From: Octopus vulgaris
Lineage: Eukaryota
Direction of reading: 5' to 3'
Length of the DNA: 64,000 nt
Assembly (NCBI GenBank): GCA_951406725.2
Contig: OX597827.1
Span: 6,324,001-6,388,000, forward strand
In this document: in pieces, positions 1,711 to 64,000 of the stretch
How the letters are laid out: each line of letters starts with the position of its first letter
Position numbering within the stretch: the stretch's first letter is position 1
The notes under the pieces: model-generated
What the model was told of the DNA's origin: nothing
The model's input: the letters and a program-made list of their open reading frames with translations, nothing else
Databases searched by the model: none
Position numbers and translations under genes: made by a program

Positions 1711-2155
1711 GTGACCTTGTGAGTACCGCTAGCGATTTTTTTTCCTCTGTCTTCCCTTCTCGGGATCTTTCCTTCTCCTATGTTTCTGACGAAGAGCTCC
1801 GCTCGAAACGTTAAACCCTCCTTCTTCCCTTCTTTCCTGAGCGTCCAATAATTCTATATTTGTTCCACGTCCTCGTGTTGCTGTGTTTTTTTTGTGTTTT
1901 CTTGTTTGGATTAACTTTATATATATATATATATATATATATACCCATACATGTGTGTGTGTGTGTGTGTGTAGTCAATTCAAATAAATGAATAAAGTTA
2001 ACAGACAACAAGAGGATGTGCACAAGGAATGTGTTGATTTGATGCTTTGTGAAAAGAGAGAGTTTGATGTTTCAAGAATAGTTCTTCATTGGAAAGGGTA
2101 AAGGGAAAAGTCCAAAGAAGGAAAAGAAATCACTAGCAGTACATGAGCAGTTACA
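1711..2155. mobile_element. Inverted pair of Penelope-like terminal fragments (1711-1918 +, ~1975-2155 -)
   Basis: The second copy is a decayed reverse complement of the first, including a decayed hammerhead CCAATGA-A-GAAC..TCTT-GAAA at 2095-2062. Both sit in (TA)n/(TG)n. Confidence 0.55.
1782..1816 (+). ncRNA. Minimal type I hammerhead ribozyme (Penelope-like)
   Basis: GTTT-CTGACGA-A-GAGC tcc GCTC-GAAA-CGT-T-AAAC: intact core, 4-bp stems I and II, palindromic ACGT stem III, GUU site. Confidence 0.7.
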
Positions 2156-8199: not shown

Positions 8200-9646
8200 A
8201 TAAAAGATAAAGCATTTTACAGGATTCTTCATTTCTGGCAGAAATTGAATAAATGTGTTCACTCCTTTAGGTTACTAAATCACATACATTTGAAATGATG
8301 ATAAAAAAAGACCCAGCATCGAAATAAAGATTTTTGAAAATTCTGAAGACTATATCATATCCAATACAGAAGTGAGAGAAATGACAGCCAATGGGCTACA
8401 AGTTGAAATTCAAATTTTGGCATTTTGTAAAGTTTCAGGAGTGTATGAGAGACTTTCTGGAATAGCTGTTTTGGTGCTGCCTGTTTGGCATTGTTGATTT
8501 GATACTGATTTATTTGGAATCGTAGGGGTCAGAAAACATGGGTAAATTACCTCAAGTGGGGTAGAAATGAAAGTTTTAGAGGTAATGAGGATTCATTAGA
8601 CGTAAGGAAAATTATATAAAAAAAAATGTGTTCCTAGTTACGACAAAAATTTTACTTCTGGCATGAAGAGGCAGTCAAAATGGTTCTGCCTTTTGCAACA
8701 ACCTACCTTTGCAAACAAAGATTTATCCAACCCAATGGACATAAAAACAAAGCAGTATAATGGATTGGATCCTGAAGACTGTATCCAAATTGCTCCCTAT
8801 CATCAAAATGCTCCAATTTTGAAGTAATCATAACAAAAAGGAAACGACATTATTTCTCCAAAACCTGAAGTGAAAAGGTTTCTAGAAAAATATTATTGGG
8901 TTGTCCAGAAAGATTGTGCTGATTTATACTAGCTTACATTTTGACTTATTTTAGAACATGGTTGAGTCCATGAAATAGGATTTCACTACACCTCCATTTA
9001 GAGCACAGTTTAAGCTATCTTTTCGTGGAAGAAGATTTATGTTCCTATAACCTGTGTTAATTCTGTAACCCTTTACAATGGAAGATAAGAAAGATCATTT
9101 TCAGCACTTGATGCTTTGGGAACCAGACAAAAATTGCTGCAGCTTGGCTGGGATATGTTACCCCACCCTCCATATTCACCAGATATTGCTCCTTTGGATT
9201 TCCACTTATTCAGGTCTCTGCAGAAAAGTCTTAATGGTAAAAATTTCAATTCCTTGGATGACGTAAAAAGATACCTTGATGAATTCTTTGCCCAGAAACC
9301 ACCTCAGTTCTGGAAAGATGGTATTTTCAAGTTAAAGGAAAGATGGAGACGCATTGTGCAACAAAATGGTTTATATTTGGTTGATTAAAAATGTAATGGC
9401 AGGTATTTATTGACCTTTTTCTTTCCTTTAAAAATCGGCACGAACTTTCCGGACAACTCAATAATTTATTTTATTGCATTTGTTTTACATTTTTTATATT
9501 TGTATTTGTATTCTCAATATAAATAGATTCAATAAAACTTTTGAATTCGAAGAACCTATGATGTTTTCCTTTCATATCAAGGGGGTAATGTTGGCATAAA
9601 TTAATAAATTTTGGGGTAATTGGTTTTAAAAATTTCTCAACACCTG
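8200..9646 (+). mobile_element. hAT (Charlie/Buster-like) remnant interrupted by the mariner
   Basis: 8662-8800 translates, with a frameshift, to EEAVKMVLPFATTYLCKQRF..MDIKTKQYNGLDPEDCIQIA, the hAT dimerisation motif. Left boundary uncertain. Confidence 0.7.
8896..9461 (+). mobile_element. Internally deleted mariner transposon
   Basis: Imperfect TIRs TTGGGTTGTCCAGAAAG.../...CTTTCCGGACAACTCAA flanked by TA. N-terminal MEDKKDHFQHLML abuts C-terminal LPHPPYSPDIAPLDFHLFRSLQ...KLKERWRRIVQQNGLY. Confidence 0.92.
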
Positions 9647-9758
9647 TTTTAACCCTTTAGCATTCAGATTTCTCTGTCAAATGTAATACTTATTTATTCA
9701 TATTGTTTTGAATTAATCATGCCCTATATTCTAGCAAAGAGATTGCAATGATATGATT

Positions 9759-10146
9759 GAATGGTTGTATACTGTCAATCTAACGTGAAAGTGACAGTAG
9801 GGGGTTACACCACCGTTGTTTAGCCCTAGGAAGCATCGACGCCTCCTGATTGCTTCGACACATTTTTCCTGTGTCCTTATATACATTTACGAAGGGGAGA
9901 CAAACACCCCCAGCAGCCAGGCCTGCATCTAGAGACACGCATGTTTCAGGATCATTGTCCTTCGTCGGTCTAGAGTAGCAGACGCCCGCCAGCCATTGAT
10001 ATCTGTCCCGATTCGCAAATGTATCTATTTCAGTGAAGTTTATTCACTGATTACCAAAATCAGAAATATTAAATTTCTAAATCTCTCATAGCGATATGTA
10101 CGGTGGTGGGGCGATAGAATGGTTGTATACTGTCAATCTAACGTGA
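9759..10146 (-). mobile_element. 358-bp hammerhead-bearing retrozyme/Penelope-like unit with 30-bp terminal redundancy
   Basis: GAATGGTTGTATACTGTCAATCTAACGTGA occurs at 9759-9788 and 10117-10146. Flanking TGATATGATTG/TGATCTGATTG looks like a TSD. The unit interrupts a MITE whose empty site is seen in the copy at ~19106-19332. Confidence 0.7.
9928..9974 (-). ncRNA. Type I hammerhead ribozyme (U4C core variant, GUC site)
   Basis: TCTAGA-CCGACGA-AGGA caatga TCCT-GAAA-CATGCGTG-TC-TCTAGA. Stems I and II pair fully, stem III is near-palindromic, and stem I extends (GTCTGC/GCAGGC) beyond an internal loop. Confidence 0.75.
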
Positions 10147-13339: not shown

Positions 13340-14170
13340 AGAGCCAAGGCTAAAGCAATCAGAGCCAAGAGATGCCCAAAGTTTCTGTCATTCATGAAGC
13401 ATCAAGGTAAAGAGAAAACTCTCGTGTTTGTGGATGAGAACAAGGTCACTGTGGATGCTGAGGTAAATCGTATAAATTCTTGAGTGATTGTATACAATCC
13501 TTCTGATGTTTCCCTGTGTTCGAGTCTAAGAATCCTGTCTCTGTGATGGTATTTGGAGTCGTGGTGAGTGATGGAAGTGTTTATGGATCCACATTTCATT
13601 GAGTCTGGCTTTAAGATTGGCACAAAGGAGTATCCGGACATCCTGAAGAATACTTTGTTACCCTGGATGGAGCAGAAGTTTGGGCTTAACAATGTGGTAC
13701 TAATCCAGGATTCTGCACCATGCCATGGCTCAAAAGCAACTCAGGCCTTCTTTGGTGAGAAGGTGCTATTTTTTGTGAGGGCAAACATCCGGCCCAGTAA
13801 AGCCCAGTTCTCAACCTTTTCGATTACTTTGTATGGAGCATGCTTTAAGCAAGGACCAATTTTAAAATATTTTTGTTTTTTTTAATAATATTTTTGTTGT
13901 TTTTATAAAATCTCAGAAAATAATTAAAAATTCACATTTTTTGTCAAATTATTTTGTTATATTTGTCCATCTATCCAACTGTTTACAGTTTGAAGACCTG
14001 CATTGCAAGTGTAACACACAAAATGAAAAGGCAGAGGTTGTGGCATCTGCAAAAAAATTTCGTCCTCTATATTACATTAAAATTATATCTGTCTACAACC
14101 ATTATTTTAGTATTTATAACCAGTTTTATGCATCGTAAAAATCGTCTCAATTAATCTGCAAGACACCGTA

Positions 14171-14639: not shown

Positions 14640-15240
14640 GTGTGCAGGTTTGTATGTTTTGCTTTATGTAAGTATTCTCATGTATATAGTTGCATATCTA
14701 GACACGCTCATACATACTTAAATGATAAACTTCTGCAAAGTTTTACAGATTTTTACAGTTCCAGTGATGGATTGGATCTGTAGTCTTTGAATTAGCTTTC
14801 TCCTTTCTGGTTTTGAGAAGCCTAATTTCTCAAGATTGATATTTAGACAGTGTATTACATATCCCAGGCCCCCAATAACTACAAACCTGAACTTATAATC
14901 TAGATAGAGTAACAGCAGATTTCTCAATAGTTCAGTGTAGGTATTATCTATTTTACTGATCTTCAGCTTTTTGTTAACACCCATTAGGCAGCTGATTTCC
15001 ACAACTTTTCTTTATACCAAATCATTATATCAGGTCGGCCCTTCTTACAGTTTACTGAGGTCTTCACTGGTACATTCCTCTAGTACTCTTCTTTATTATG
15101 AGTGGCTATGGCTTCTACCATACTGTGGGTTCTTATTTCTTTGTCCTCGGAGTCATCCTTCTGATGGATTTCATTACAGAGTGCCCTAGCTACAACAACA
15201 TCTCTCATCAGAAGATAATATTGTGATGATATTTTCAGTG
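14640..15240 (-). mobile_element. 3' fragment of a REL-endonuclease non-LTR retrotransposon (R4/Dong/NeSL-like) inside (TATG)n
   Basis: RPDIMIW..VVEISC...VVIGGLGYV...LQIQSITGTVKICKTLQKFII*; upstream [18 protein letters not shown]. Both flanks are (TATG)n. Confidence 0.8.
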
Positions 15241-19420: not shown

Positions 19421-19733
19421 AGTGGAGGCACATGGCCTAGTGGTTAGAGCAGTGGACTCACGGTCGAGGGATTGTGGGTTTGAATCTTGGACCAGGCGAT
19501 GTGTGTGTTTATGAGCAAAACACCTAAGCTCCATGCGACTCTGGCAGAAGGTAATGGCAAACTTCTGCTGACTCTTTTGCCACAACTTTCTCTCACTCTT
19601 TCCTCCTGCATCTTGCAGCTCATCTGCGATGGACCGGCATCCCATCCAGGTGGGGAACCTACACACCAAGGAAACCAGGAAACCAGACCTTATGAGCCAG
19701 GCATGGCTCAAGAAGGAACAAAAGAAAGAAAAG
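19421..19733 (+). mobile_element. tRNA-derived SINE with V-like domain
   Basis: Head TGGCCTAGTGGTTAGAGC..GGTTTGAATC, GCGATGGACCGGCATCCCATCCAGG, 11-bp TSD ACTTAGCAATG. Confidence 0.85.
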
Positions 19734-24958: not shown

Positions 24959-25324
24959 CATCATCATCAGCAGCATTGTTATTATTATTGAATGAGAGAG
25001 TAGTGCATGTCATGACATTGACAGTGGGGTACAATTATACGAAGCCAAATATACCCACCATGAACCACCCTTCTGATAAGTGTACACCAGACATCTATTT
25101 AGCAACAATATGTGCACAACATAACGATTTCATATCAAGATAACAGCCCAGTTAAAATTTTCTTCAGGTCAGGTAGACTATCTTGCTCAAGGGGTCCCTG
25201 AATAAGGGTTGTTTAAGGATATTGAATGAACCACCCATGTTTCCAGAGAGGAGTTATTTAAACACCAAAGAGTCCCTCTCAACACATGGATATGATGCTC
25301 CTCCACAATGTGCCCTCTCATGAT

Positions 25325-25567
25325 GCCCTACAAAGTCAGAAAACAACACAGCTCCCATGACTTTCGGAAACATTTTTTCACGCTCAGAGTTGCTGAAGCA
25401 TGGAATAAACTGCCTGCGTCAGTTGTTGACTGCCATGACACTGCATCCTTTAAGGCCTTCATGCTTTCCGAAATCCGCCGAAACTACACCTGATTATATA
25501 TACACTTTAGATGAGTTGTAGTGCACCTGAGCACTGTACACAATTATTATTATTATTATTATTATTA
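25325..25567 (+). mobile_element. CR1-type LINE 3' end nested in an (AAT)n-associated repeat (~24980-25650)
   Basis: PYKVRKQ..FRKHFFTLRVAEAWNKLPASVV..SFK*, tail GTGCACCTGAGCACTGTA(ATT)n, also seen at ~20957-21000. Confidence 0.8.
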
Positions 25568-25909
25568 TGATCAGAGATGCACATATTGTCAGCCACCAAT
25601 AGACATACATACTCAACTGGTTAAGGTCAAACAACTAACCCAATGCTTTGATCACAATAGGGACAACCTTTGTGTTTGACTCACGTAGCTGCTACATCTT
25701 AGCGATCTCAATTTTCGGGTCTCCATATTTACCAATTTTTTCCCTTTCTTTCATGATAATATGTTGATTTCCTGGCTCTGCACCCTTTCCACCAGCCCTT
25801 TTACATTCTGTTTGAAAAGTGTCAAAGTTAGATTTGCTTTCCATCCCTCTCTGGAGTTGATAAAAACGAAGCCTAAGTCAGGTGCTGAGGTTGATGTAAT
25901 TGACCAAAC

Positions 25910-29030: not shown

Positions 29031-29828
29031 TTGTCATTGTCATCCCCATTATTATTGTCATCATCGTAGTTGTCATCGCTGTCGTTTTAATGAGAGAGCT
29101 TTTGAATGCAGTTATGATTGGACTGGCCCTTCTCAACCCCAAATTGCAACACTCAGCATGCTCCTTCACCATCTTCTTTGTGATATTCAACATCCTGAAA
29201 AAAAAAAAAGACTCCAGCACTTCTGCCCACATCTTCTTTGGTCTCCTTCTTACACAGCAGCTGCCTCCCAGTCACATCATTTGACACTTCATCGTCCAAC
29301 TATTGCTGGTGATATTCACCATATTTAACCATACTAGTGCAGCCTTCATTTGGAGAAAGAAACCCTTTCTTTACAACTGAAGAACATCCTGAACCTTTCT
29401 TATTCCATTGTTAATCTGGTACATATTTTAGAAAATTGTTTGATTGTTTTATATATATATATAAATAGAGAGTGAGAGAGAGATGCAGACAGACAGAAAG
29501 ACAGATCGATAGATATATAGACAGATACATATCTATCTATCTATCTATCTGTGCTAATATTCACCGGAGACATTTTTTATGTGGCTGAAGCCCAATGGAT
29601 CTATTTATAGTGCTAGAGTAGACCACATAGTGGTCGCTCTCTTATATTTATATATAAAATGTATGAAATCCGGGTTTCTTATATGCACTAAGCCACTAGG
29701 TGTTAAATGGATGTACTATTAAATTAGTATAAAAATTTCTCACCTTTATTGGTTGTTTATATATATATATTTTATTTTTATTTTATCTAGTTTCAGCTCA
29801 CGAGCTGTGGCCATGCTGGGGCACCGCC

Positions 29829-29864
<36 letters not shown>

Positions 29865-39178: not shown

Positions 39179-39447
39179 TCACGTTGGTGAGTAAGGTAAT
39201 TTTGGTAATGCAGGTAAGGGTTTGATATAAGAAGTGAAACTGTTCTTTGTTGGTAAATTCCATGGTTGGGATGATATAGAACTTGTTCCTGTTACTCTGA
39301 TGGACTTTAGATCAATTACATCATTGCATGGAGTATTCTGACCAATTTTAGTTGGGTAACAGACCTTGACATTTATGTTAGAATCCCTGGGAAGACTAGA
39401 TGTCTTGCTTGAGTTCTGTGGTTGTTCAATTTGGCATAATTTGCGAC
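39179..39447 (-). CDS. Protocadherin last coding exon
   Basis: Acceptor cattttcttcAG|GT is phase 1, matching the previous donor. 88 further open codons end ...SSQPWNLPTKNSFTSYIKPLPALPKLPYSPT-TGA (stop 39181-39179). Spliced product inside the window is 918 aa. Confidence 0.88.
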
Positions 39448-39701
39448 CTGAAGAAAATGAGCTCTCTATAAGACACTTTCAGAGAAAAAATTGAGTAAAA
39501 AAATTAAAAAAAAAATAACAGTCTACTTTCTAGTTTAATTATTGCATAACAAATGGCTACATATATTCAACAAAGTACTGACAATCTAAATGTAAAGATG
39601 TGCTTTTAAAATTAAATTAACTTTTGCTTAAAACTAAACAGGAAAAATTTGCATAAATGAATTTCAATATATTCATTAAATTTATTATTATTATTATTAA
39701 T

Positions 39702-39772
<71 letters not shown>

Positions 39773-40223
39773 CGTTGTTAATGTAGCATTACTATTATTA
39801 TTATCATTATTATTATTATTGTTATTATTGTTGTAGTTGTTGTAAATGTTGTTACAAATATTAATGAAATATGAATATTGCCTATTTTGGAATGCAAATT
39901 TATGTAATATTAATGTTTTATTCATGTCATTTCTTGATTGATAATAAACAAAATATTTTACATTTCTAAATAACATACACACAAACAAAAAAAAATAAAA
40001 TGAAAAGAAAATGCTTTAGTTTATTTTAATTAAAAATTTCAATTTATCAAATTTTTATTTCAAGATATAATGAATTAAATAGTAGAAAGTTTATTTTCCT
40101 ATTAAATATTTGCCTTCAGAAAATTTATATCTTTCTTTTTTTTTTTCTATGTAATTTTTAAGTTATTTTATTTTATTATTTTAATGAAAATATATCTGAG
40201 TAAATATCTCTTTTATTACATAC

Positions 40224-40368
40224 CTAATAATTCTTGATAAAGTTGAGTGTTTCCCTCTTTCTGGCCTTGTCCTTTATCAATATGAGAAGACATAGATTTT
40301 CGACAGAAATCATCTGAACTTGCTATCATATGTCCTTCTCTACCAATGTTAGAAGCCACAGTTGCCGC
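40224..40368 (-). CDS. Protocadherin cytoplasmic exon (145 bp)
   Basis: Acceptor cttcttacAG|GCG is phase 0, matching the upstream donor. Encodes AATVASNIGREGHMIASSDDFCRKSMSSHIDKGQGQKEGNTQLYQELL-G. Donor TAG|GTATGT is phase 1. Resembles, from memory, the cephalopod Pcdh tail block D.G.G..EG....Y.EL.G. Confidence 0.85.
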
Positions 40369-40632
40369 CTGTAAGAAGTGGGCAAGAGATAGCAATATGG
40401 AGCCATGAAAAAATTTTTTTATATTATGTTCAGCTATAATTTTAACAGCATCCAGTATAATAACCATTCACTGTATTTAATTGATTAATAACTTAAAAAG
40501 AAAGAAAACAAAAACAATTATTATTCTATAGAAGTAATAATAATAACAATTATCAAATAAGATAATAGTAGTAGTAGAAGTAACCATAATTAATCATGAT
40601 GTTTAATAATCATAATTATATGATTAATAATC

Positions 40633-40746: not shown

Positions 40747-41300
40747 GCCCTGATGTAGTACCAAGCAGTGGCTTTCATGGTTTCTGATCTTAACTGATTG
40801 GAAGTGTTATCATGTACATTGTTTTGTTTTGGTATAAAAGATGGGCTACAGCAAATATTCTGCTCAATACCACAGATTTGCTTGTCAGTTGTTTGACCTT
40901 AACCAGTTGACCATGTCCTTTGGTGGCTTACGATATGTACATCTTTGATCACAAGCAGAAGTAGTGGGGAAGCATCATAGCCTTGTGTTGAAAGGAATTC
41001 TTGGAGGTTTGGATAATTCACCTTAGGAAACATGGGGGATTCGTTCAACATCCTTAATCTTTATTCAGGGACCTTTTGAGCGGGATGGGCTACTCAACCA
41101 GAAGAAAATTGTAACTGAGCCCCACCTGCAAGGTCATGCACCATTTATCTTGATATGAGATCACCCTGTCGCGCACATATGGTTGCAATGCATGTGCCTG
41201 GTGTACCCTTATCAGACTGGTACTCATGAGGGGCATACTGAGCTTCTTATATTTTACCCAAGTGTCACTTTGATGACATGCACTGCTCTCTCTCACTCAA
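40745..41300. mobile_element. ~550-bp (AAT)n-flanked interspersed repeat; inverted relative at ~24980-25650
   Basis: Shared blocks such as GTTGTTTGACCTTAACCAGTTGA and CATGCACT.CTCTCTC in opposite orientations. Confidence 0.7.
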
Positions 41301-45385: not shown

Positions 45386-45613
45386 TTAACCCTTTTGATA
45401 CCAACCCGGCTGAAACTGCCTCTGGCTCTGTAGTACAAATGTTTTGTTTCCATAAGTTTTGAATTGAAATCTTCCACCAAACCTTAGTCACAATTAATGT
45501 TCCAAACACTAGCTTAATGATAACTGAATTAATTTACTAAATGCTTTGTTATATTTAAAATTAATTTAAAAAAACAGAGCATCTCAAAATAATTATGGTA
45601 ACAAATGGGTTAA
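45386..45613. mobile_element. TTAA-flanked piggyBac-type MITE; inverted copy at 50663-50891
   Basis: TTAA-CCCTTTTGATACC...GGTAACAAATGGG-TTAA. Confidence 0.85.
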
Positions 45614-45699
45614 TGAATGAAAGGAGAACAAGAATCAAATAATTAGCTTCATTTATTTACAACTGTTTCTGAATATATATATATACATGAGAGTGCAGA

Positions 45700-46130
45700 T
45701 GGCGGGAGAGGTATGCAATTATATACATCTGGAAGATCCTGGAAGGAATTGTGCCAAATTTTGGCATTGAAAGCTACACCAATGCCAGAACCAGTCGACA
45801 CTGCACAGTGCCAAAGATCCCAGCAACGCCATTGTGCTTCAGGACCAGTTACTGCAACAGCCTTGGTTTCAGGGACCCGCAGCTTTTTAATATTCTCCCA
45901 AAGAGCCTGAAAGACCTACACAAAGTGGATGTAGGTGCTTTCAAATCAAAACTGGACCTCTTCCTATTGAGGGTTCCAGGTGGCAAGAGGTGCAAATGAG
46001 AGTAGCAACATCAAACTCCATTCTTCACCAAGTGCCACATATTAGAGGAGGCTCTCAGTAATAACCATGTAGCAAAATGGCAGTGCCCCAGCATGGCCAC
46101 AGCTCTGAACTGAAACTACAAAAAGAAAAA
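45700..46130 (+). mobile_element. LINE ORF2 C-terminus and 3' tail (CR1 group)
   Basis: RHCTVPKIP..NSLGFRDPQLFNILPKSLKDLH.VDV.AFKSKLDLFL; tail GGCAGTGCCCCAGCATGGCCACAGCTC..CTGAAAC. Confidence 0.75.
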
Positions 46131-46170
46131 GAGAAGGAAATGACATGTTACTCCTCAGCGACAGAGTAAT

Positions 46171-46220
46171 GGGTCACTGATGAAGGTTAATTAAATTTAA
46201 CACCTGTGCTGATATGACTC
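46171..46220 (+). ncRNA. Degenerate hammerhead, monomer 1 of tandem repeat
   Basis: GGGTCA-CTGATGA-AGGTT aatta AATTT-AACA(for GAAA)-CCTGTGCTGA-TA-TGACTC. Confidence 0.5.
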
Positions 46221-46451
46221 CATCTTGCTTGTTGCAGGTAGGAAGCCTGTCTCCCTCATCAGTCATTAGAAAAGTGCTCTCTCATGGCTAAGAGTTGTTT
46301 TGACTCTTATTTCTAGCGATGCTGTTGCTTATTAGCATCCTCCATCACTTTAGTGACAACCATACTTGTTGCTTTTTGGTTTTACATTGTGAATAGCCAC
46401 CTTCATAATTTATAATTCTCACTTCACCGTTTTGGAAATCAGTCAATGGTA

Positions 46452-46833
46452 GGAAGCACTCCGTCGGTTATGACGACAAGGGTTCCGGTTGATCTGATCA
46501 ACGGAACAGCCTGCTCGTGAAATTAACATGTAAGTGGCTGAGCACTCCACAGACACGTGTACCCTTAACGTAGTTCTCGGGGATATTCAGCATGACACAG
46601 AGAGTGACAAGGCCGGCCCTTGAAATACAGGTACAACAGAAACAGGAAGTAAGAGTGAGAGAAAGTTGTGGTGAAAGAGTGCAGCAGGGATCACCACCAT
46701 CCCCTGCCGGAGCCTCGTGGAGCTTTAGGTGTTTTCGCTCAATAAACACTCACAATGCCCGGTCTGGCAATCGAAACCGCGATCCTACGACCGCGAGTCC
46801 GCTGCCCTAACCACTGGGCCATTGCACCTCCAC
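46452..46833 (-). mobile_element. tRNA-derived SINE (same head as 19421, different 3' half)
   Basis: 14-bp TSD ATCAGTCAATGGTA (46438-46451, 46834-46847). Decayed relatives at ~53063-53370, ~48590-48830, ~26430-26680, ~54570-54750. Confidence 0.88.
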
Positions 46834-46901
46834 ATCAGTCAATGGTACTCCCTATAAGAATGACAGGGTGAGTTAGGTTCTTTAACCCTCGATGATGAAT
46901 A

Positions 46902-46949
46902 GGTCAGTGATGAAGATTAATTAAATCTGAAATCAGTGCTGATATGACT
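46902..46949 (+). ncRNA. Hammerhead with C3G substitution, monomer 2 of tandem repeat
   Basis: GGTCA-GTGATGA-AGATT aatta AATCT-GAAA-TCAGTGCTGA-TA-TGACT. Stems I-III pair. Confidence 0.6.
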
Positions 46950-47946
46950 CCATCTCTCTTGTCATAGGGAGGAAGTGTGTCTCTCTTGTCAGTCATTAGA
47001 AAAGTGCTCTCACATGGCTAAGAGTTGCTTCAACTCTTATTTCTAGTAATGTTGGTGCTTACTAGCGCTCAGTTACTTTAGTGGTGACTATACTTGTTGC
47101 CTTTTGTTTCTAAATTGCAAATAGCCACCTTGATAGTGTATATATATTTCTTTACTGCCCACAAGGGGCTAAGCATAGAGGGGACAAACAAGGACAGACA
47201 AGGGGATTAAGTCGAATACATTGAACCCAGTGTGAAACTGGTACTTTATTTATTGACCCCGAAATTATGAAAGGCAAAGTCGACCTCGGCAGAATTTGAA
47301 CTCAGAACGTAACGACAGACGAAATACCGCTAAGAATTTTGCCTGGCGGTTTACGTTTCTGCCAGGTCGCCGCCTTTGAATAGTGTATATATATATATAT
47401 ATATATAAATACACATACACACATATGTATGTGTGTGTGTGTATATTTGTTGGTGTTGGAGGGCTATATTGATTTATGAATACTTTTCTAATTTAAGATG
47501 GCAATGGTGTGATTTTGTGATTTGCAGGAAATTTAGAAGGAACTATGACAAAGTCTTTCTTCACTGGCTTCAAGAAAATTCGTTGTTGTTAACCCCAAAT
47601 ATTAGACAGTCTTTATCTTGTCTATGAGATTAAATGACACTGTCCCTTACATTCTTTATCTAAAACAGTATAGTGTGATTTGATAGAAATTTAGCTGCTC
47701 TTTCCTGCAGATCAAATGAACATACGAAGAGTATTTGCTGAACAACACAGCAATAAATGAAATAGTACTTTCATCTATCAGACAATTTTTTTCTCTCTTG
47801 CTGTTAAACGTTGTATTTCATTCCTTCAGAGATGTGCTTAGTTTAAGAGACAGTGTAAAATATGAGTTACTTCTGTTTCACTACCTCAGAGAGGTGATTG
47901 GTATAATGGGCAGTGTGAGGCATGGAATACTTAACGAAGGTGTATG

Positions 47947-48155: not shown

Positions 48156-50229
48156 AGCATACCAGTGTCTGATATAGATATCTGCAACCAGGGATGTAAC
48201 TAGAATGTGTGCTACCTGGGATAGCCTATGAATTTTCTGTCCCCACCTCAGGTCCTCAAATCTATACACACTTGTATAACAGCCTAATTAGTGTCAGTTC
48301 CATAAAAGCATTGCCTGGGATGGAGAACCACTTCCTCTACCCCAGTTACATTATTGGCTGTTACCATGGGTTTCACAAACTCTTCAAAGTTGGTAAAATT
48401 GACCCCATTAATATTTCTCTTAAGCTATTGCTAAACAACAGCTGGAAAAAAAAATAAAAACACACTTGTAAAGAAAGAGCTCCAGAGGGATAAAGTTCTA
48501 AGGGAGAAGAATTTGGCATAGGGGTTAGAGCAGGACCCGGGAGAACACAATGTGAGTGATGAGAAAAGATAAGTTAAGTTAGCAAAGTTACCCTTTCAAG
48601 TCATACTGATTCATAAGGGCTGGTTTCCTAGTTTTATGGCACATATATTCCCTACCTGCACTGGACACCAGTCCTTGCAGGATTACTCATTTTTGCCAGC
48701 TGAGTTGACTGGAGCAATGTGAAATGAAGAGTTTTGCTCAAGTACTCAATGTGTTGCCTGGTCCAGGAATCAAAGCCATAACCTTACAATCACGAGTTCA
48801 ACACCCTACCCACAAAAACCACGTGCCTCCAGACAAGGGGATTAAGTCGATTACATCGACCCCAGTGCGAAACTGGTACTTTATTTATTGACCCCGAAAG
48901 GATGAAAGGCAAGTCGACCTCGGCAAAATTTGAACTCAGAACGTAACATACAGACGAAATACCGCTAAGCATTTTGCCTGGCGGCTTACATTTCTGCCAG
49001 CTCGCCGCCTTCGAATAGTGCATATATATATTTATAAATACACATACACACATATGTATGTGTGTGTGTGTGTATTTGTTGGTGTTGGAGGGCTATATTG
49101 ATTTTGATCAAATATCTACAAAAGCCAAGGACTGAGGACTCTATAGTATCACAAGGAAAGGCAGAATGAGAGACAGAATGTTTACAGGTCAGTTGTTGAT
49201 GCATGTATGTTGACCATCAACTTCGTGCCAATCAGTTGGGTGTTCTTTGGGGGTGGAGATGTGGTCTTGGATGTCTCTGTGTGTAATCACTGCACCAATC
49301 TGGATGGGAAAGTGGTACTCCAAATTAGGTTACAACTTGGATTTATGTAGAGGGTTGGTAGTTGTGGACTGAAGTATTTTCTGGCTCTCTGAAGAGGAAA
49401 GCCAGTTGTTATGATGCAGTTTTTGTTATGTTGAGTATATACATTTGTAGACAAATTTGTAGTTGTTGTTTATTTCAGTATCAGACCTGGCCAAGCAGAA
49501 ACAAACCTATGACCAAAGGACACAGCAATCATGCCCATCACATCTTCTTCGTTTTCAGACACAATGTATCTACCAAGATCACATCATATTACGTGTCCTT
49601 TTCTAAAATGTTGTAGGATGTTATTTGAGGGAGATCTGGTTTCTATTTTAAGTAGGTTAAGCAGCCTTCTAGGGGCTCCCTTATTGGCTCTGTAGTCAAT
49701 GTAGAAAAAAAGTTTGTCTTTTGTAGATGTTTGATCAAAATAATACCTCACTAAATTTATGTTAATTTGATTTCTTTTTCATTTCCGCCAAGGTTGACTC
49801 AATATTTTTGCCTGCACACCTGCTGTGGTCAAGTGGCCTTCAACCTTCTGGGGTTGGTAAAATAAAACACCAGAGAAGCACTGGGACTAATTTAGTATTC
49901 TTGTAAACCATCCTAGATGCAAATGGAATTACATATATTAATAACTAATATTAACTATGTTTTACATCCTTCTATAGTCGATTAAATAAAAAGACATCTC
50001 AAATTGATTAAATTGACCATATTTTCCCCTGAAATTTGTGTCCTTGTATCAATGTTAGAAATCAATATTTTGTTCATAAACACTTTTATCCAAACGAATC
50101 ATGAACCTGTTCATCGTATCTTATGCGTAAATACCAACATCTTTGTGACTGTATGTGTTGTATGTAAGCTTATATAAAATTATAAGAAATGTCACTACTT
50201 CAACATGGCTGTTCTGTATGAATTGATGT

Positions 50230-50520: not shown

Positions 50521-53500
50521 GAATGTCGGTTCAAACGGAACAACTATGTTGAAATGGCAACAAAAATTACTTCTTTATATAAAATCTCTTTTCCACCAAT
50601 CATTAACATTGGTTTCAGATTTTGGCACAAGGCCAGCTATTTCAGGGAAGAAGCTAAGTTAATTAACCCTTTTGTTACTGTATTTATTTTGAGATGCTCT
50701 GTGTTTCTTTCAATTACTTTAAATATAATAAAGAATTTAGTAAAATAACTTAGTTATGATTCAGCTAGTTTTAGGAACATAAATTGTGATTAAGGTTTGG
50801 TGGAAGATTTTAATTCAAAATTTATGAAAACAAAACATTTGTACTAAAGAGCCAGAGGTGGTTTCAGCCGGGTTGGTATCGAAAGGGTTAAACTAACCCC
50901 AGTGCTTAACTGGTACTTATTTTATTGACCTCCTAAGGAGGAAAGGCGAAGTCTACCTGCCAGTATTTGAACCCAGAACACAAAGATGAACAAAATGCTG
51001 TTAATCATTTTTCCCAGCAGGCTAACAAGTCTGCTAAGACACCACCTTTAAAAAATGTGGCCAGTAAGTCACTGGAGAGGGTCAAACTCCATACCTCTTA
51101 AGCTCCAGTTAAGAGCTCTATTCCATTAAGCTAAGTGACCCATGACCACTAATTATTAATATCAAGTATGTTTATGAAGCTTTTGATGTGTGCCTGTTTT
51201 TATTTGCAGACTTTGTATGACACTTGACCCTTTTTTGATCATGTTTCTAATGAAATACATTAATCCATGGAACATTTTTTTTTTCAATATTCATGAGGTT
51301 GGAGAGATTTAGTAAAAAATTTTTACTATATTGATGGCATATAGGATGTACTTTTTTCAAATATCATTCCAGATTCTATAAGTGAATTTTGGACTCCTAT
51401 AAGCTGTAATGCATTAAAAACATTTTTGCCTGAATATATGCAGCTGAAAGTGATGTACACCTCATTTATACCATCAAATATAGTAGCTTTTGCATTACTA
51501 AACTCACATTACTACATAGAAAATTAATGGAATAGAATGTTTTAACTATTATGCAATATGAACACCCCACACTAATTACATACAGTACTGGTCTTCTGCA
51601 AAGACTCCCCCAAACCTCAGATCTCATGGCAGATAGACCACTTAAGAGAAGAACTTCTCAAATTCATGAGACACTGTATCATTACTCGCAACAACAACAA
51701 GTAGATCAACAGTATGAAGTGGATGATTGTGCTCCAGTTGGTAGGAGAGAAAGACCAAGGGTCTAGAGTGGGTTGAACAATGATGAAGAGGTTTAGACTG
51801 ATATTTAAATACTTTAAAACTTTGTATCACAGATAAAGGGTTAATATCAGATGACTTGCTATCAAAAGTATTAAAATTGCAAAGCTGTAGATATAATCAG
51901 TTAACTTTAGATAGTTGTCATCATCATCATCATTGTCACTATTTTAATGTCTACATTTCCATTCTTGTATGGGCCAGGAGAAACTTGTTGAATTAGATTT
52001 TTCTATGACCAGATGCTCTTCCTTTTGCCAACCTTTACCTGTACCCAACTAAAGCAATATCTCCCTTAATCTTTTGAAAACAAACAGCTCAATGATTGGA
52101 CATGTTTTTGTGGAAGATTGTAAGCAAATGATACTGTATGAAAGTGACCTTTGTTTGAAATTAGTGTATTAGTGTATTAGTCAGTCAAACCGTCCGACCC
52201 ATGCCAGCATGGAAAATGGACGTTAAACGATGATAATGATGATGATGATATATATGAAGGGCTTCCTTCAAGTTCTATATGCCAAATCCACTCACAAGGC
52301 TTTGGGTAGTTTGAAGCAGAAATAGAAGAAATTTTCTCAAGGTCTGACACGAAGGGATTGAACTTGAAATTATGAAGTTGACAAGTAAACTTCTCAGTCT
52401 CAGTCAAGTCTGCACACGAACGAACACAAATTTATTTCATAAAGAAATAAATATATATCAAAACACACACACACACACAGAATTATATATATAAATCTAA
52501 ATGTCACTAATTTCGCTTTTGTTAGCAAATTTTTAAGAAGTTGTCATTCAACCAATTACATTGCAAAAGATATGTGTGATTTTTAACTCCACTGAACTCC
52601 CTGAGGTCCACAGCTGGCTAAGTTATAAGTAAATCAGTTTACAGCAAAAGGGACAGTTATTCATCTTCTATTACTGTAGAGTAATTAGAGACAAGACACA
52701 GTGCTTTGGTGAAATATTGTTTGCTGCTGTATATTAGAGGGTGATATTTTGCAAATTGATCAGATTGCTTTTGGTCTTTTTAAAGCAATCTAAAATATTC
52801 GTGAGTCTGTGTGCATAGTAGGAGCTCTGACCCAGATATCTGAATACATTCGTGTCTTAAACAACTTTGGGATGCAGTTTTTGGTTGTCATTGATTTGTG
52901 AGGCAGAGGCTGGGAATTTCCAAAGGTTAAGGCTCCTTTGGTTGTAGGTTGTTCCACAAGTAAAGACAGTAAAATAAATTGATTGCTAACTTTGATAAGT
53001 AATAACTGATTGAGTACTAGATATGGGCAATGACTAGGCTTTCATATCTCTAAGGAAACATGTGGTGAAGGTGCATGGCTTAGTGGTTAGGGTATTTAGC
53101 ACATGATCGTAAAGTCATGAGTTCAATTCTCAGTGGTGTATTGTGTCTTTGAGTAAGATTCTTATTTCATATTGCTCCAGTCCAGTCACTGTAAAAATGA
53201 GTAGTACCTGTAATACCTTGTCACAGTCTCACTGAATCTCCCTAAGAACTACATTAAGGGTATGTGTGTCTGTGGAGTGCTCAGCCACTTGCATGTTAAT
53301 TTCCTGAGCAGGCTATTTCATGGATTAGATTAATTAGAACTGTCATTGTAGTAACCGACAGAGTGCCAGTGAAACATGTTTTTAAGATTTCTATTCATAA
53401 TTATTAGGTATAAAAATCCAAAGACCCAGTTTTCACAAGCACTAAATGTATATGAATGAACAGAACATGTCTTTAGATTTTTTCAAAAACCAAGTTTTGG

Positions 53501-58012: not shown

Positions 58013-58430
58013 GGCGCAGGAGTGGCTGTGTGGTAAGTAGCTTGCTAACCAACCACATGGTTGCAGGTTCAGTCCCACTGCGTGGCATCTTGGGCAACTG
58101 TATTCTGCTATATATAGCCCCGGGCTGACCAATGCCTTGTGACTGGATTTGGTAGACGGAAACTGAATGAAGCCTGTCGTATATATGTATATATATATGT
58201 ATGTGTGTGTGTTTGTGTGTCTGTGTTTGTCCCCCAAGCATTGCTTGACAACCGATGCTGGTGTGTTTACGTCCCTGTCACTTAGCAGTTCGGCAAAAAG
58301 AGACTGATAGAATAAGTACTGGGCTTACAAAAAAATGAATAAGTCCCGGGGGCGAGTTGCTCGACTAAAGGCGGTGCTCCAGCATGGCCGCAGTCAAATG
58401 ACTGAAACAAGTAAAAGAGAAAAGAGAGAG
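58013..58430 (+). mobile_element. tRNA-derived SINE with CORE-like CTTGGGCAA segment; copies at 59423-59820 (+), 1581-1655 (+, truncated), ~28020-28180 (-), ~52230-52420 (-)
   Basis: A/B-box-like head GGCGCAGGAGTGGCTGTGTGG..GGTTCAGTCCC, internal (TA)/(TG) repeat, LINE-like tail. Confidence 0.9.
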
Positions 58431-59113: not shown

Positions 59114-60311
59114 AACTTTTACTGAATATGGTCCTTTTCCATACCGAAACACTACTTGGTGAAATTTGTTGATTTTATTAAATTAATTATATTTCACCCT
59201 TTATCTGTTTATGTATATATAATTCATGAAGGAAACAGACAATGGGTTTGGTACAAATCAATATTCAATGTGGTGATTGTTTTAATCCATCCTGCAGCTG
59301 TCCCTTATGGGTAGGATATTGTGCAGCAAGTTGCATCGCATTAATCAGCGCAGTCTGTGTCTCCTGAGGGGTTTGGTATAAAAGATATACTATTTTAACA
59401 GTTTTTATCTCCTAAAATCAAACAGGAGTGGTTGCGTGGTAAGTAGTTTGCTTACCAACCACATGGTTCCGGGTTCAGTCCCACTGCGTGGCATCTTGGG
59501 CAAGTGTCTTCTACTATAGCCTCGGGCCGACCAAAGCCTTGTGAGTGGATATGGTAGACGGAAAATGAAAGAAGCCCATCGTATATATGTATATATATAT
59601 ATATATATATGTGTATGTTTGTGTGTCTGTGTTTGTCCCCCCAACATCGCTTGACAAATGATGTTGGTGTGTTTACGTCGCCATCACTTAGCGGTTCGGC
59701 AAAAGAGACCGATAGAATAAGTATTGGGCTTACAAAGAATAAGTCCCAGGGTCGATCTGTTCGACTAAAGGCGGTGCTCCAGCATGGCCGCTGTCAAATG
59801 ACTGAAACAAGTATAAGAGAAGGAGAAACTCTACTATGTTCCTCCATAAACATAGTAGAGATTTGCCCAAGGTGCTTCAGGGTGTAATTCAACTCTAAAT
59901 CAGATTGTTCAGAAGTGAACTTCATAACTACACAAAAACATTAGAAATATATATTACATCCATCATTGAAAACCAGAAGGCGCTTTTAAATGCCTCTTTA
60001 AGACATTATTTGGAGAGACAGAACATTCCTCTTCAGAAATATTTGAAGACATTTTATTCATTAACAAAATTTTCATAGAAATAAGCCCTGAATCTATTCA
60101 TGTCATTCATAAATTTCATACTTCTTAGCCACTGGCTTATATATGTATGAGTGTGTATGTGTATGTGTGTGTGTATGTATATGTGTGTGTATGTATATGT
60201 ATGTCTATATATATAATTATATATATATATATATATGTGTGTGTATGTATGAATTAAGTATATATATATATAAATATGTATGTATGTATGTATAGTTTTT
60301 TTTTATGTATG

Positions 60312-61656: not shown

Positions 61657-64000
61657 CTGACTATCTCCTTTCGTTATGGTCTGCATTTGAAATCCAGAAG
61701 CGGAACCTTCCAGATTAGGTTCTGATTTATATCCTGAATGGGTCTCCCTTTTGGGTACTGTAATTTGGCAGTTTCTATTACTAACTTGGTCTCCTACTAT
61801 GGTAAATGGAATGTCATATTTTGGTGAAATAGGTTCGCATATATATTCTGACGGCCTTCGTTCTCCAACTAAATCATTGTTTGCATCAATCCGGTAACCG
61901 TACTGAACCTCTCTTTGATTCTGTCTTTGAACAATGCAGACTATTATAGAGACTACAATAGCTGTAGATATTATCACAGCAGCTATTACGATTATTACTA
62001 CTAAACTGATATGTATCATATCGTCTGACTCAGTGTGTTGAGCTGTGTAAAGCTGAGAGGTGCTGTTGCTGACCGTTAGAGTCAGAAATACTGTGGTGGT
62101 TGCTGACAATACTGGAGTCCCACTGTCTCTGACCACAAACTGAAGGTCATATGACCCAGCATCATTTTGGTAAACTGGACGAGAGAAAGACAATACTCCA
62201 GAATGTGGGTTTACATTAAACAACTGTTTGTCATTGCCTTTGACAATTTCATACGTGAGGAAAGCATTCACATGACTGTCTCTGTCAGAGGCTCTTAGTA
62301 CTGTGATGTCTTTGTTAATTTGTGGATGATAGTGGACATCTAGACTGAAAGGGTTGACACTAGGGAAAGTAAAGTATGGTACGTTGTCATTCTCATCCAT
62401 GACTTTAACAATAACATTTGCAGTGTTGTTTAACGGTGGAATTCCACTGTCTTTCACAGAAACTTGAAATTTATAGATCTCTTGTTGCTCACGATCTAAA
62501 GATTGTGTCGTTGAAATAAATCCAAAATCAGAAATTTCAAATGGAAGAACATATTGATCCTTACTGTAGAGAGAATAATAAAGTTTATTTTCTGGTCCCA
62601 GATCTGGATCAGTGGCATTTATAAATCCAACAAGGAAGTTTGATTTTTCATTTTCATAGGCCAAAAATTTAAATGTATCTTTGGTAAACATAGGCCTTAC
62701 ATCATTGATATCCACTACTTCAATTGAAAACTGACTCTGAGTTTGTAATGAGGGAGACCCTCTATCTTTACAAGTTATATCAAATTCAATGTGACTTTCA
62801 GTTTCTCGATCGATTTCACTTTTTACTATAACTTTATATTTCATTTTACCTAAACTTTGAAGTTGAAGTTTGTCATGCTGAAGGAAACAGTCTACTTCTC
62901 CATTCTGACCAATGTCATCATCTATGATCTTCACAAAGGCTATAAAACTGCCGACTTTTATTCCTTCAGATATTGTCAATTTGTTTCCAGATGATTGGGA
63001 AACAAACTTTACCTCAATTTTGGGTATGTTATTTTGTTGATTTATGATATTTACTAAAACCATGACTGTAGAACTCAGAGGTGGAATACCTCCATCTACA
63101 GCTTCGATAAACAACTTGTGGATTTTCTTGGATCCTGAGAAATACTTTTGGATAAGGAAAATCTCACCTGTTTCCTTAACTAATTTGAAATAAGATTTAG
63201 CATTGTTAGATGTTTTGGAACCAAAATAATATGATATTTTACCATTTTCGCCACTATCTAAATCCGTTGCAGATAATGTGGTAATGGGTTTGTTCTTCCT
63301 AAATCCGTTGTTGAGTGAAACATTGTAAACATTTTTAGCAAAACGTGGTGGGTTATCATTAACATCTGTTATGGAAACGTGAACATTTAAAATAGATTGT
63401 TTTGGAGGAAATCCTTGGTCCTTGGCTACTATCTGTATGTTATATTCATCTTCCATTTCTCTGTCAAGTCTTTGCTCCAAAATTATTCCAAGTGTAGCTG
63501 TCCCATCTATTTTCTTGGACACAGATAAACTAAATGGCTGGCCATGTTCATTCTTCATCCAGTAAACAATTTGTGAGTTCTGAATTCCAACATCTTTGTC
63601 AATAGCATTTGCTATTGAACGTCTTACCCCTTTGCGATCATCTTCAGAAAATTCTATCTTTACATGATCCTCGGGGAACTCTGGACGGTGATCATTGACG
63701 TCTTTTAATATAACTTTGATTTCAAGAATTTTTACAAATGATTCCTTATTTTGAACAGCAATGTCAACTGTCCTGAAGCATTCAGTATTGTATTTGCAAA
63801 GCGCTTCAGTATCTAGTTGTTGAGCTGTGTAAAGTTTCCCAGTTCTGGAGACGTTAAATAACCATAATGTGTTATTAATACCTTCTTTTAGTTGACTGAA
63901 CCAAATTAATGCACGGTCTTTTAAAGGTATGTTTTCCAACTGTATGTCTGCAGCGATATTTCCAATATATGTATCAGGTCTTTGCCCTTCCTCTACTTGA
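61657..64000 (-). CDS. Protocadherin large exon (EC1-EC6, transmembrane helix, proximal cytoplasmic tail); 5' end outside window
   Basis: The frame is open to the window edge (QVEEGQRPDTYIGNIAADIQ precedes the track's TTG start). Cadherin motifs LDTE, DVNDHRPEF, LDRE, DVNDNPPRF, ATDLDSGENG, IDRE, DINDVRPMF, DENDNVPYF; TM segment ISLVVIIVIAAVIISTAIVVSIIVCIV; phase-0 donor CAG|GTAAAT at 61657/61656. Confidence 0.97.

Follow-up and report, generated by a model that had tools for sequence, protein, structure and literature searches.

In the published life cycle of retrozymes, a multimeric RNA is cleaved, the product is circularized, cDNA of more than unit length is made from the circle and insertion is accomplished by proteins of Penelope-like elements (PLEs) (PMC7761336; PMC4209133). 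Animal retrozymes are described as repeats of 150-450 bp with a GC content below 50%. The metazoan non-LTR representatives, among them those of coral, Mytilus (350-390 bp) and axolotl (Rtz331 and Rtz353), are non-coding tandem units with one type I hammerhead each and a helix III that favours dimers (PMC7229834). Target duplications of retrozymes, when present, are longer than 4 bp. Here, we describe a locus of Octopus vulgaris within 64,000 nucleotides of contig OX597827.1 (assembly GCA_951406725.2, positions 6,324,001 to 6,388,000; referred to as the window, in which all positions are counted from its first letter). It displays the anatomy of a non-LTR retrozyme, i.e., a tandem of a non-coding unit in the 150-450-bp range, one type I hammerhead per unit and a GC content below 50%. 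The unit fits the animal retrozymes because it comprises 334 nt with a GC content of 0.39 and contains no stop-free stretch of more than 37 aa. A dimer-favouring helix III is likewise present, and the octopus is a mollusc, as is the host of the Mytilus elements. On the other hand, the octopus locus differs from the metazoan non-LTR retrozymes in its longer, 12-nt palindrome, an A-U pair at the base of helix II, the lack of a recognizable target duplication and of any remaining fold signal, and in being a dead array of only 1.8 units. With somewhat better than even confidence, we favour its interpretation as a fossil non-LTR retrozyme, a non-autonomous, Penelope-dependent circular-RNA repeat of about 1.8 units that was split by a SINE and has decayed.

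Hammerheads in the pseudo-LTRs (pLTRs) of PLEs from Aedes, D. willistoni and Marsupenaeus (PMC4209133) are similar to the octopus ribozymes in that their palindromic helix III lies in a direct repeat that forms a partial tandem with an AT-rich 3' junction. According to the supplement of that work, hammerheads associated with PLEs of shrimp, D. willistoni and Aedes display A10.1-U11.1, an A at position 17 and palindromic helices III of 8-10 nt, providing precedents for each odd feature of the octopus ribozymes. Unlike PLE pLTRs, the octopus locus is not accompanied by an open reading frame for a reverse transcriptase (RT)/GIY-YIG protein, and two features of the minimal consensus, an unpaired base following A9 and the G10.1-C11.1 pair, are missing from it. 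Recently active Penelope-like families have been described for O. vulgaris (PMC13282606). In the LTR retrozymes of plants, too, a unique centre is flanked by two direct repeats that each bear a hammerhead, but these elements carry type III ribozymes, 4-bp target duplications, PBS and PPT and a centre of 600-1000 bp. Amniote hammerheads such as those in C10orf118 and RECK are intronic as well, but they are conserved and active, while the octopus copies lie antisense to their host gene and are decaying.

The window consists of animal DNA rich in microsatellites. Its minus strand carries a protocadherin gene that was recognized by its Pfam cadherin repeats and has its best named paralogues in Octopus vulgaris, O. 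sinensis, O. bimaculoides and Argonauta. Mapping of the window protein P0001 places the end of exon 1 at 61657, exon 2 at 40371-40222 and exon 3 at 39448-39182, all on the minus strand. The gene thus occupies 39182-40371 and 61657-64000; its first intron spans 21 kb, two small coding exons lie at the 3' end, and the ectodomain exon runs past the window end. An earlier reading of the sequence alone had located the repeat in a protocadherin intron, and the exon mapping specifies this as intron 1 (40372-61656, minus strand), which is transcribed opposite to the ribozymes. As the ribozymes are encoded on the plus strand, antisense to the gene, they cannot cut protocadherin pre-mRNA, which rules out cleavage of the host transcript. 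A dead insertion in this orientation is expected to leave the host pre-mRNA unaffected. The same intron harbors further repeats: inverted 234-bp copies, 88% identical and 5 kb apart, at 45386-45617 and 50659-50891 bracket the array, and short direct duplications with 81-87% identity are found at 57688-57788/58459-58560 and 58017-58412/59423-59812.

Alignment of the window with itself identified two copies of the repeat body on the plus strand, 46168-46414 (247 nt) and 46898-47142 (245 nt, ending in a (TA)n tract), which share 80.97% identity over 247 columns (E 1e-62) and differ by 31 transitions and 14 transversions (K2P 0.216). The copies proposed in the sequence-only reading are therefore real, although its starts were offset by one base (46901 is the partner of 46171) and 12 additional bases match at the 3' end. 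The cores begin at 46177 and 46907 and the cleavage positions are 46214 and 46944, in full agreement with the 730-bp spacing given before. The period is hidden by a younger SINE (46452-46833, minus strand, 382 bp) flanked by an exact 14-bp direct repeat at 46438-46451 and 46834-46847; the two repeats are 396 bp apart and cannot be extended on either side. These 396 bp correspond to the 382-bp SINE body plus one 14-bp duplication, and their removal leaves a unit period of 334 bp, so that the earlier proposal of a SINE with target-site duplications masking a tandem repeat is confirmed. The SINE has a tRNA-like head with what we take, by eye, to be A- and B-box-like motifs; ARAGORN detected no tRNA gene in it. 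Relatives are present in the window at 19422-19608 (77%) and 53232-53366 (80%). A tRNA-like sequence at 51067-51139 on the minus strand, the only match in the window above an Rfam gathering threshold, and only just so (31.6 bits), is probably also a SINE head or a pseudogene.

With the SINE removed, Tandem Repeats Finder (TRF) reported a period of 334 with 1.8 copies at the most lenient of three settings only, and it found nothing at the settings of the 2026 preprint pipeline, with the SINE in or out. The period of the postulated 334-bp dimer is thus correct, while the array amounts to about 1.8 units rather than two: clear duplication is confined to 247 of the 334 nt, and the remaining 87 nt form a non-duplicated spacer (plus strand) that is now divided into a 5' part, 46415-46437, and a 3' part, 46834-46897, the latter beginning with the right SINE target duplication. 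The longest stop-free stretches of the unit encompass 35-37 aa. A search with nhmmer found no third copy in the 64-kb window, and a 23-mer common to both copies had no exact match in prokaryotic genomes.

The spacer seems to belong to the unit. When the 32 nt preceding copy 1 (46136-46167, plus strand) were aligned with the linker in an end-anchored manner, a score of 20 was obtained that was equalled by 3 of 600 random window stretches; the same score was reached by 281 of 2923 stretches in unanchored alignments, and the doubly anchored comparison was negative (138/300). These 32 nt, which lack about 28 nt next to the ribozyme, are tentatively regarded as a probable remnant of the spacer. No unit sequence was found to the left of the adjoining LINE fragment (430/1000). 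The 3' part of the spacer is partially complementary to the arm of copy 2 downstream of hammerhead 2, with a predicted duplex energy of -28.7 kcal/mol that was matched by 43 of 2000 random stretches. The corresponding duplex with the copy 1 arm was matched by 178 of 2000, making the energy-based result modest overall, and complementarity assessed by plain alignment was not significant (579/2922 and 2615/2919).

Both junctions of the array were hit by later insertions. The 5' end is adjoined by a LINE 3' fragment (45691-46135, plus strand), which may have deleted or shifted the original junction. Its tail is common to 29775-29830, 58367-58427 and 59767-59824, and its translation resembles a CR1/L2-type C-terminus, although it gave no Pfam match; no target duplication was found for it. 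A second SINE (47133-47394, plus strand) with a 15-bp target duplication (47133-47147/47380-47394) and multiple copies in the window lies at the 3' edge. No 5-mer was shared between the array flanks searched, and hence no target duplication of the array itself was found. Part of a SINE, together with a microsatellite and unique flanking sequence, is contained in a local duplication of about 280 bp (47195-47475 and 48830-49104) with 91% identity.

Each copy starts with a type I hammerhead on the plus strand. Nucleotide position numbers within the hammerheads were assigned by eye. In hammerhead 1 (46171-46220), a pair-by-pair check revealed a complete helix I (46171-46176/46215-46220, 6/6 pairs), a complete helix II (46184-46188/46194-46198, 5/5) and an intact CUGAUGA core (46177-46183), along with four lesions: two changes in the GAAA box at 46199-46202, which reads AACA, and two broken pairs out of four in helix III. 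Hammerhead 2 (46901-46950) has a single core lesion, C3G at 46907-46913, and an intact GAAA box at 46929-46932. Its helix I forms five of six pairs, its helix II consists of five Watson-Crick pairs closed by A10.1-U11.1, and a 12-nt near-palindrome (46932-46943) precedes the cleavage position behind an AUA triplet. Counting the conserved positions of CUGANGA, GAAA and UH in order, copy 2 retains 11 of 12 and copy 1 retains 10 of 12. Neither is complete, yet every one of the 12 is present in one copy or the other, and the C lost in copy 2 is kept in copy 1. The two broken copies do not provide the two consecutive complete hammerheads that define an active element in 10.64898/2026.07.22.740005. 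Both adopt the type I layout, ending in helix I, with 14 of 15 helix pairs formed in copy 2 and 13 of 15 in copy 1. Helix I is weak, with one G-U pair and, in copy 2, one mismatch. Among the differences between these two copies only, four fall in helices I and II, of which three keep the pair as G-U wobbles, one breaks it and none is a double change. Since C3G abolishes cleavage in a PLE hammerhead (PMC11167929), copy 2 is predicted to be dead.

The frequency of such motifs was assessed with a descriptor for type I hammerheads that allowed at most one core mismatch, using 654 block-shuffled windows as a control. In its loose form it gave three matches in the window compared with 57 in the 654 shuffled windows (0.087 per window). 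The strict form, set to the observed stem lengths with thresholds chosen post hoc, matched only hammerhead 2 in the window and gave one match in the 654 controls. The minus strand of copy 1 contains another CUGAUGA (46262), which is not followed by GAAA after a stem and did not match the descriptor. One of the checks suggested in the sequence-only reading, a scan with the Rfam hammerhead model, was unsuccessful: no hammerhead was reported at the locus, neither at the gathering threshold nor at E<=10. Note that the same scan also missed a perfect minimal hammerhead at 1782-1816; the sensitivity of Rfam for hammerheads of this type is poor.

Both copies decay neutrally. Conservation of the ribozyme does not exceed that of the remaining repeat (42/50 versus 155/192 identical positions, p 0.69), which is exactly the expectation for a dead insertion. 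Six CpG-type sites are visible, not one of them preserved as CG in both copies; at five of them, one copy reads TG where its counterpart reads CA. This split shows that the two copies decayed independently and, with the loss of CpG being nearly total, a TG common to both copies in helix III is to be expected. It had been claimed that the helix III palindrome is a single CpG transition away from perfection. One transition is indeed sufficient, but T is present in both copies and the CpG is a reconstruction and not attested. Similarly, the lesions had been called complementary. Copy 2 does carry C3G and the GAAA box of copy 1 is broken, but the two lost helix III pairs of copy 1 had gone unmentioned, and complementary lesions are no sign of trans-complementation because they are expected for any two neutrally decaying copies. 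With a published calibration in which Jukes-Cantor distances of 0.09 and 0.12 correspond to 25 and 33 My (PMC13282606), a divergence of about 0.11 per copy suggests an insertion age of about 30 My, a value inflated by CpG loss. The array would be younger than the Penelope peak, which lies at 0.2 in the same source.

Nearest-neighbour folding gave a helix III pairing probability of 0.00 in every monomer. Once C3 and the CpG are restored, the core CUGAU of the monomer is bound by the 5' arm of the palindrome, the 3' arm of which has the identical sequence. When two such restored molecules were cofolded, the minimum free energy (MFE) structure was a double hammerhead (-32.9 kcal/mol versus -24.6 kcal/mol for two monomers), with pair probabilities of 0.97 for the palindrome and 0.93. 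The restored pair misfolds without the reconstructed CpG. For two molecules of copy 2, the double hammerhead was again the MFE structure, with a probability of only 0.16. Trans-complementation between the extant copies was rejected, as natural copy 1 and copy 2 did not cofold into a double hammerhead. The cofold results are consistent with, though not proof of, a switch that is off in the monomer and on in the dimer; the models leave out tertiary contacts, and any palindrome favours dimers by construction. A rod-like fold of the 334-nt unit was not detected (circular z -0.56 and -0.76, -0.31 for CpG-guided composites, -0.85 for the local fold), and it should be kept in mind that this measure is weak for decayed copies: a well-folding 358-nt unit from the same window dropped to a mean z of -1.22 upon 10% mutation, and 12 of 40 such mutated copies had values above -0.8.

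For the fossil retrozyme that we favour, the following history can be envisaged. A non-coding 334-nt unit with one type I hammerhead would have entered protocadherin intron 1 in antisense orientation, as an array of about 1.8 units. According to the folding models, the core CUGAU of an isolated unit would be sequestered by the 5' palindrome arm, keeping the ribozyme inactive, while in two units the 12-nt palindromes would pair, giving a double hammerhead that is predicted to cut after AUA. By analogy with known retrozymes, a multimeric transcript would be processed to unit-length RNA and then to a circle, from which more-than-unit cDNA would be made and inserted by the RT/GIY-YIG protein of a Penelope-like element. 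A younger SINE would later have split the spacer, and the array would have been left to decay. The assignment to a retrozyme or Penelope pLTR family in the sequence-only reading holds insofar as the locus is a decayed type I hammerhead repeat of that type; status as a family and an origin of the tandem by transposition remain conjectural, with no third copy found in the window and no target duplication found around the array.

The tandem itself could have a different origin. If an inserted monomer had later undergone DNA-level duplication at the same site, the arrangement would be uninformative with regard to rolling-circle copying. There are grounds for such a scenario: the 91% identical local duplication lies next door, the 358-nt unit used for comparison was inserted as only about 1.1 units, the array is not bounded by a target duplication, and local amplification is invoked in 10.64898/2026.07.22.740005 itself. 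The same preprint describes retrozyme families as usually consisting of tandems of 2-7 units, which speaks against it, as does the independent decay of the copies from a CpG-bearing ancestor, which would put any duplication close to the insertion and not long after it. We consider duplication in place unlikely. Slightly less likely still, in our opinion, is that the locus represents the pLTR end of an autonomous Penelope-like element, i.e., a truncated partial tandem, instead of a self-standing retrozyme. Type I hammerheads whose helix III is palindromic are indeed found in such pLTRs, which also form partial tandems (PMC4209133; PMC11167929), and at its 3' end the array borders on (TA)n, which has been named as a target of Naiad and proposed as one of Neptune PLEs (10.1101/2021.04.23.441226). 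However, the locus holds no coding remnant, its repeats are only 87 nt apart, and no RT or GIY-YIG sequence was recognized by eye among the six-frame stretches listed for the window. Furthermore, the 6-bp helix I and the missing unpaired base after A9 are unlike the minimal PLE consensus (PMC4209133). The line between retrozymes and pLTRs is soft in any case, as retrozymes may be derivatives of pLTRs (10.64898/2026.07.22.740005).

It is very improbable that the hammerheads are a chance resemblance in an anonymous duplication, or that the repeats are a pair of box C/D snoRNAs. The only Rfam matches over copy 2 were indeed five to C/D snoRNAs (E 0.5-7.3), but they fall far short of the gathering threshold, the best scoring 26.7 bits as opposed to the required 39. 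Intronic snoRNAs run sense to their host gene, and the antisense orientation of the 334-nt repeat to protocadherin argues against this class of RNA. The fact that the ribozyme is conserved no better than its surroundings could be taken as an indication of chance, yet equal divergence is precisely what a dead insertion predicts. Moreover, three helices and core occurred together in only one of the 654 shuffled windows, and in the octopus locus they occupy the extreme 5' edge of both repeat copies.

The window contains a second unit that may be a distant relative of the fossil retrozyme. This 358-nt element (9755-10146, minus strand) is well preserved, was inserted as about 1.1 units into an older repeat that it splits, and is bounded by an 11-bp target duplication with one mismatch. 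Its type I hammerhead (9928-9974) has one core change, U4C. The unit folds as a rod with the hammerhead at the tip (circular z -5.97, reached by 0 of 50 shuffles, and -5.02, 0 of 200), and without modification it cofolds with itself as a double hammerhead. An 87-aa stretch within it has no Pfam match. Tails of 30-40 bp at one end are described as a PLE signature (10.1101/2021.04.23.441226; PMC11167929), and the terminal repeat of about 30 nt in the 358-nt unit may be interpreted as such a Penelope-like tail. Judged from these features, the element is the most promising candidate for a young retrozyme of octopus that bears a Penelope-like tail, and a better lead than the 334-nt locus.

The two units resemble each other in length, in a 6-bp helix I, in an A-U pair that closes helix II over a G-C pair, and in a CpG-centred palindromic helix III showing the same decay to TG. 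They differ in that the 358-nt unit is a monomer with terminal repeat and target duplication, a strong rod fold, a GUC triplet and a GC content of 0.45. An 18-mer that starts in the 5' spacer (46430-46447) matches the 358-nt unit at 10059 in 16 of 18 positions, the only match in the window with at most two mismatches, and sits 64-74 nt upstream of the core. In global alignments of the two units, the scores were attained by 1-12 of 1000 dinucleotide-shuffled sequences, by 0-2 of 261 rotations and by none of 311 reverse rotations; real genomic stretches attained them in 17-70 of 1000 cases, which is marginal. The number of matched columns was 140 compared with a maximum of 134 among 103 controls, while the identity per column outside the ribozyme (45%) did not exceed the null value (46%). 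This colinear similarity is weak and suggestive. It renders doubtful the description of the 334-nt repeat as belonging to a sequence-unrelated family, at least with respect to the 358-nt unit; nhmmer, however, established no link between the two.

The minimal hammerhead at 1782-1816 (plus strand), a zero-mismatch descriptor match, belongs to a third element. It possesses an extra base after A9, a G10.1-C11.1 pair and palindromic positions 15.2-16.2, in accordance with the published PLE consensus (PMC4209133). The surrounding insert (1712-1917) of about 205 bp lies between two (TA)n tracts and looks like a solo pLTR. It showed no similarity to the 334-nt unit in a masked self-BLAST. Elsewhere in the window, stop-free stretches were noticed at 9089-9385 (plus), 13568-13882 (plus), 14721-15011 (minus), 24994-25639 and 40884-41292, which we take, by eye, to be remnants of Tc1/mariner transposases or LINEs; the three that were checked gave no Pfam match.

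Among the titles listed for the literature searched, comprising mostly open papers and with repeat libraries outside its scope, none reported a cephalopod hammerhead or retrozyme. The words ribozyme and hammerhead do not occur in the main text of the O. vulgaris repeat annotation (PMC13282606), nor does Octopus in the searched part of the PMC4209133 supplement. The family may already exist in repeat libraries as an unnamed or Penelope-labelled consensus. The dead 334-nt locus is of value as a lead and not for any effect on its host gene, and it illustrates how pipelines based on tandem repeats or Rfam overlook old retrozymes. Hammerhead elements may be numerous in octopus. We tentatively put forward, as a possible but still doubtful proposal, that this animal houses an abundant, undescribed lineage of circular-RNA retrozymes of 330-360 nt, of which the 334-nt locus and the element at 9755-10146 would be two diverged members. 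Their CpG-centred palindromic helix III would serve as a monomer-off/dimer-on switch, acting through core pairing in the 334-nt unit, and the tail of the 358-nt unit would be a footprint of Penelope-like mobilisation. If this were true, extrapolation from the three hammerhead elements in 64 kb would give a number on the order of 1e5 per genome, a very rough figure; only one of the three passes the zero-mismatch descriptor. The better-preserved 358-nt unit offers a direct test of which machinery mobilises animal retrozymes.
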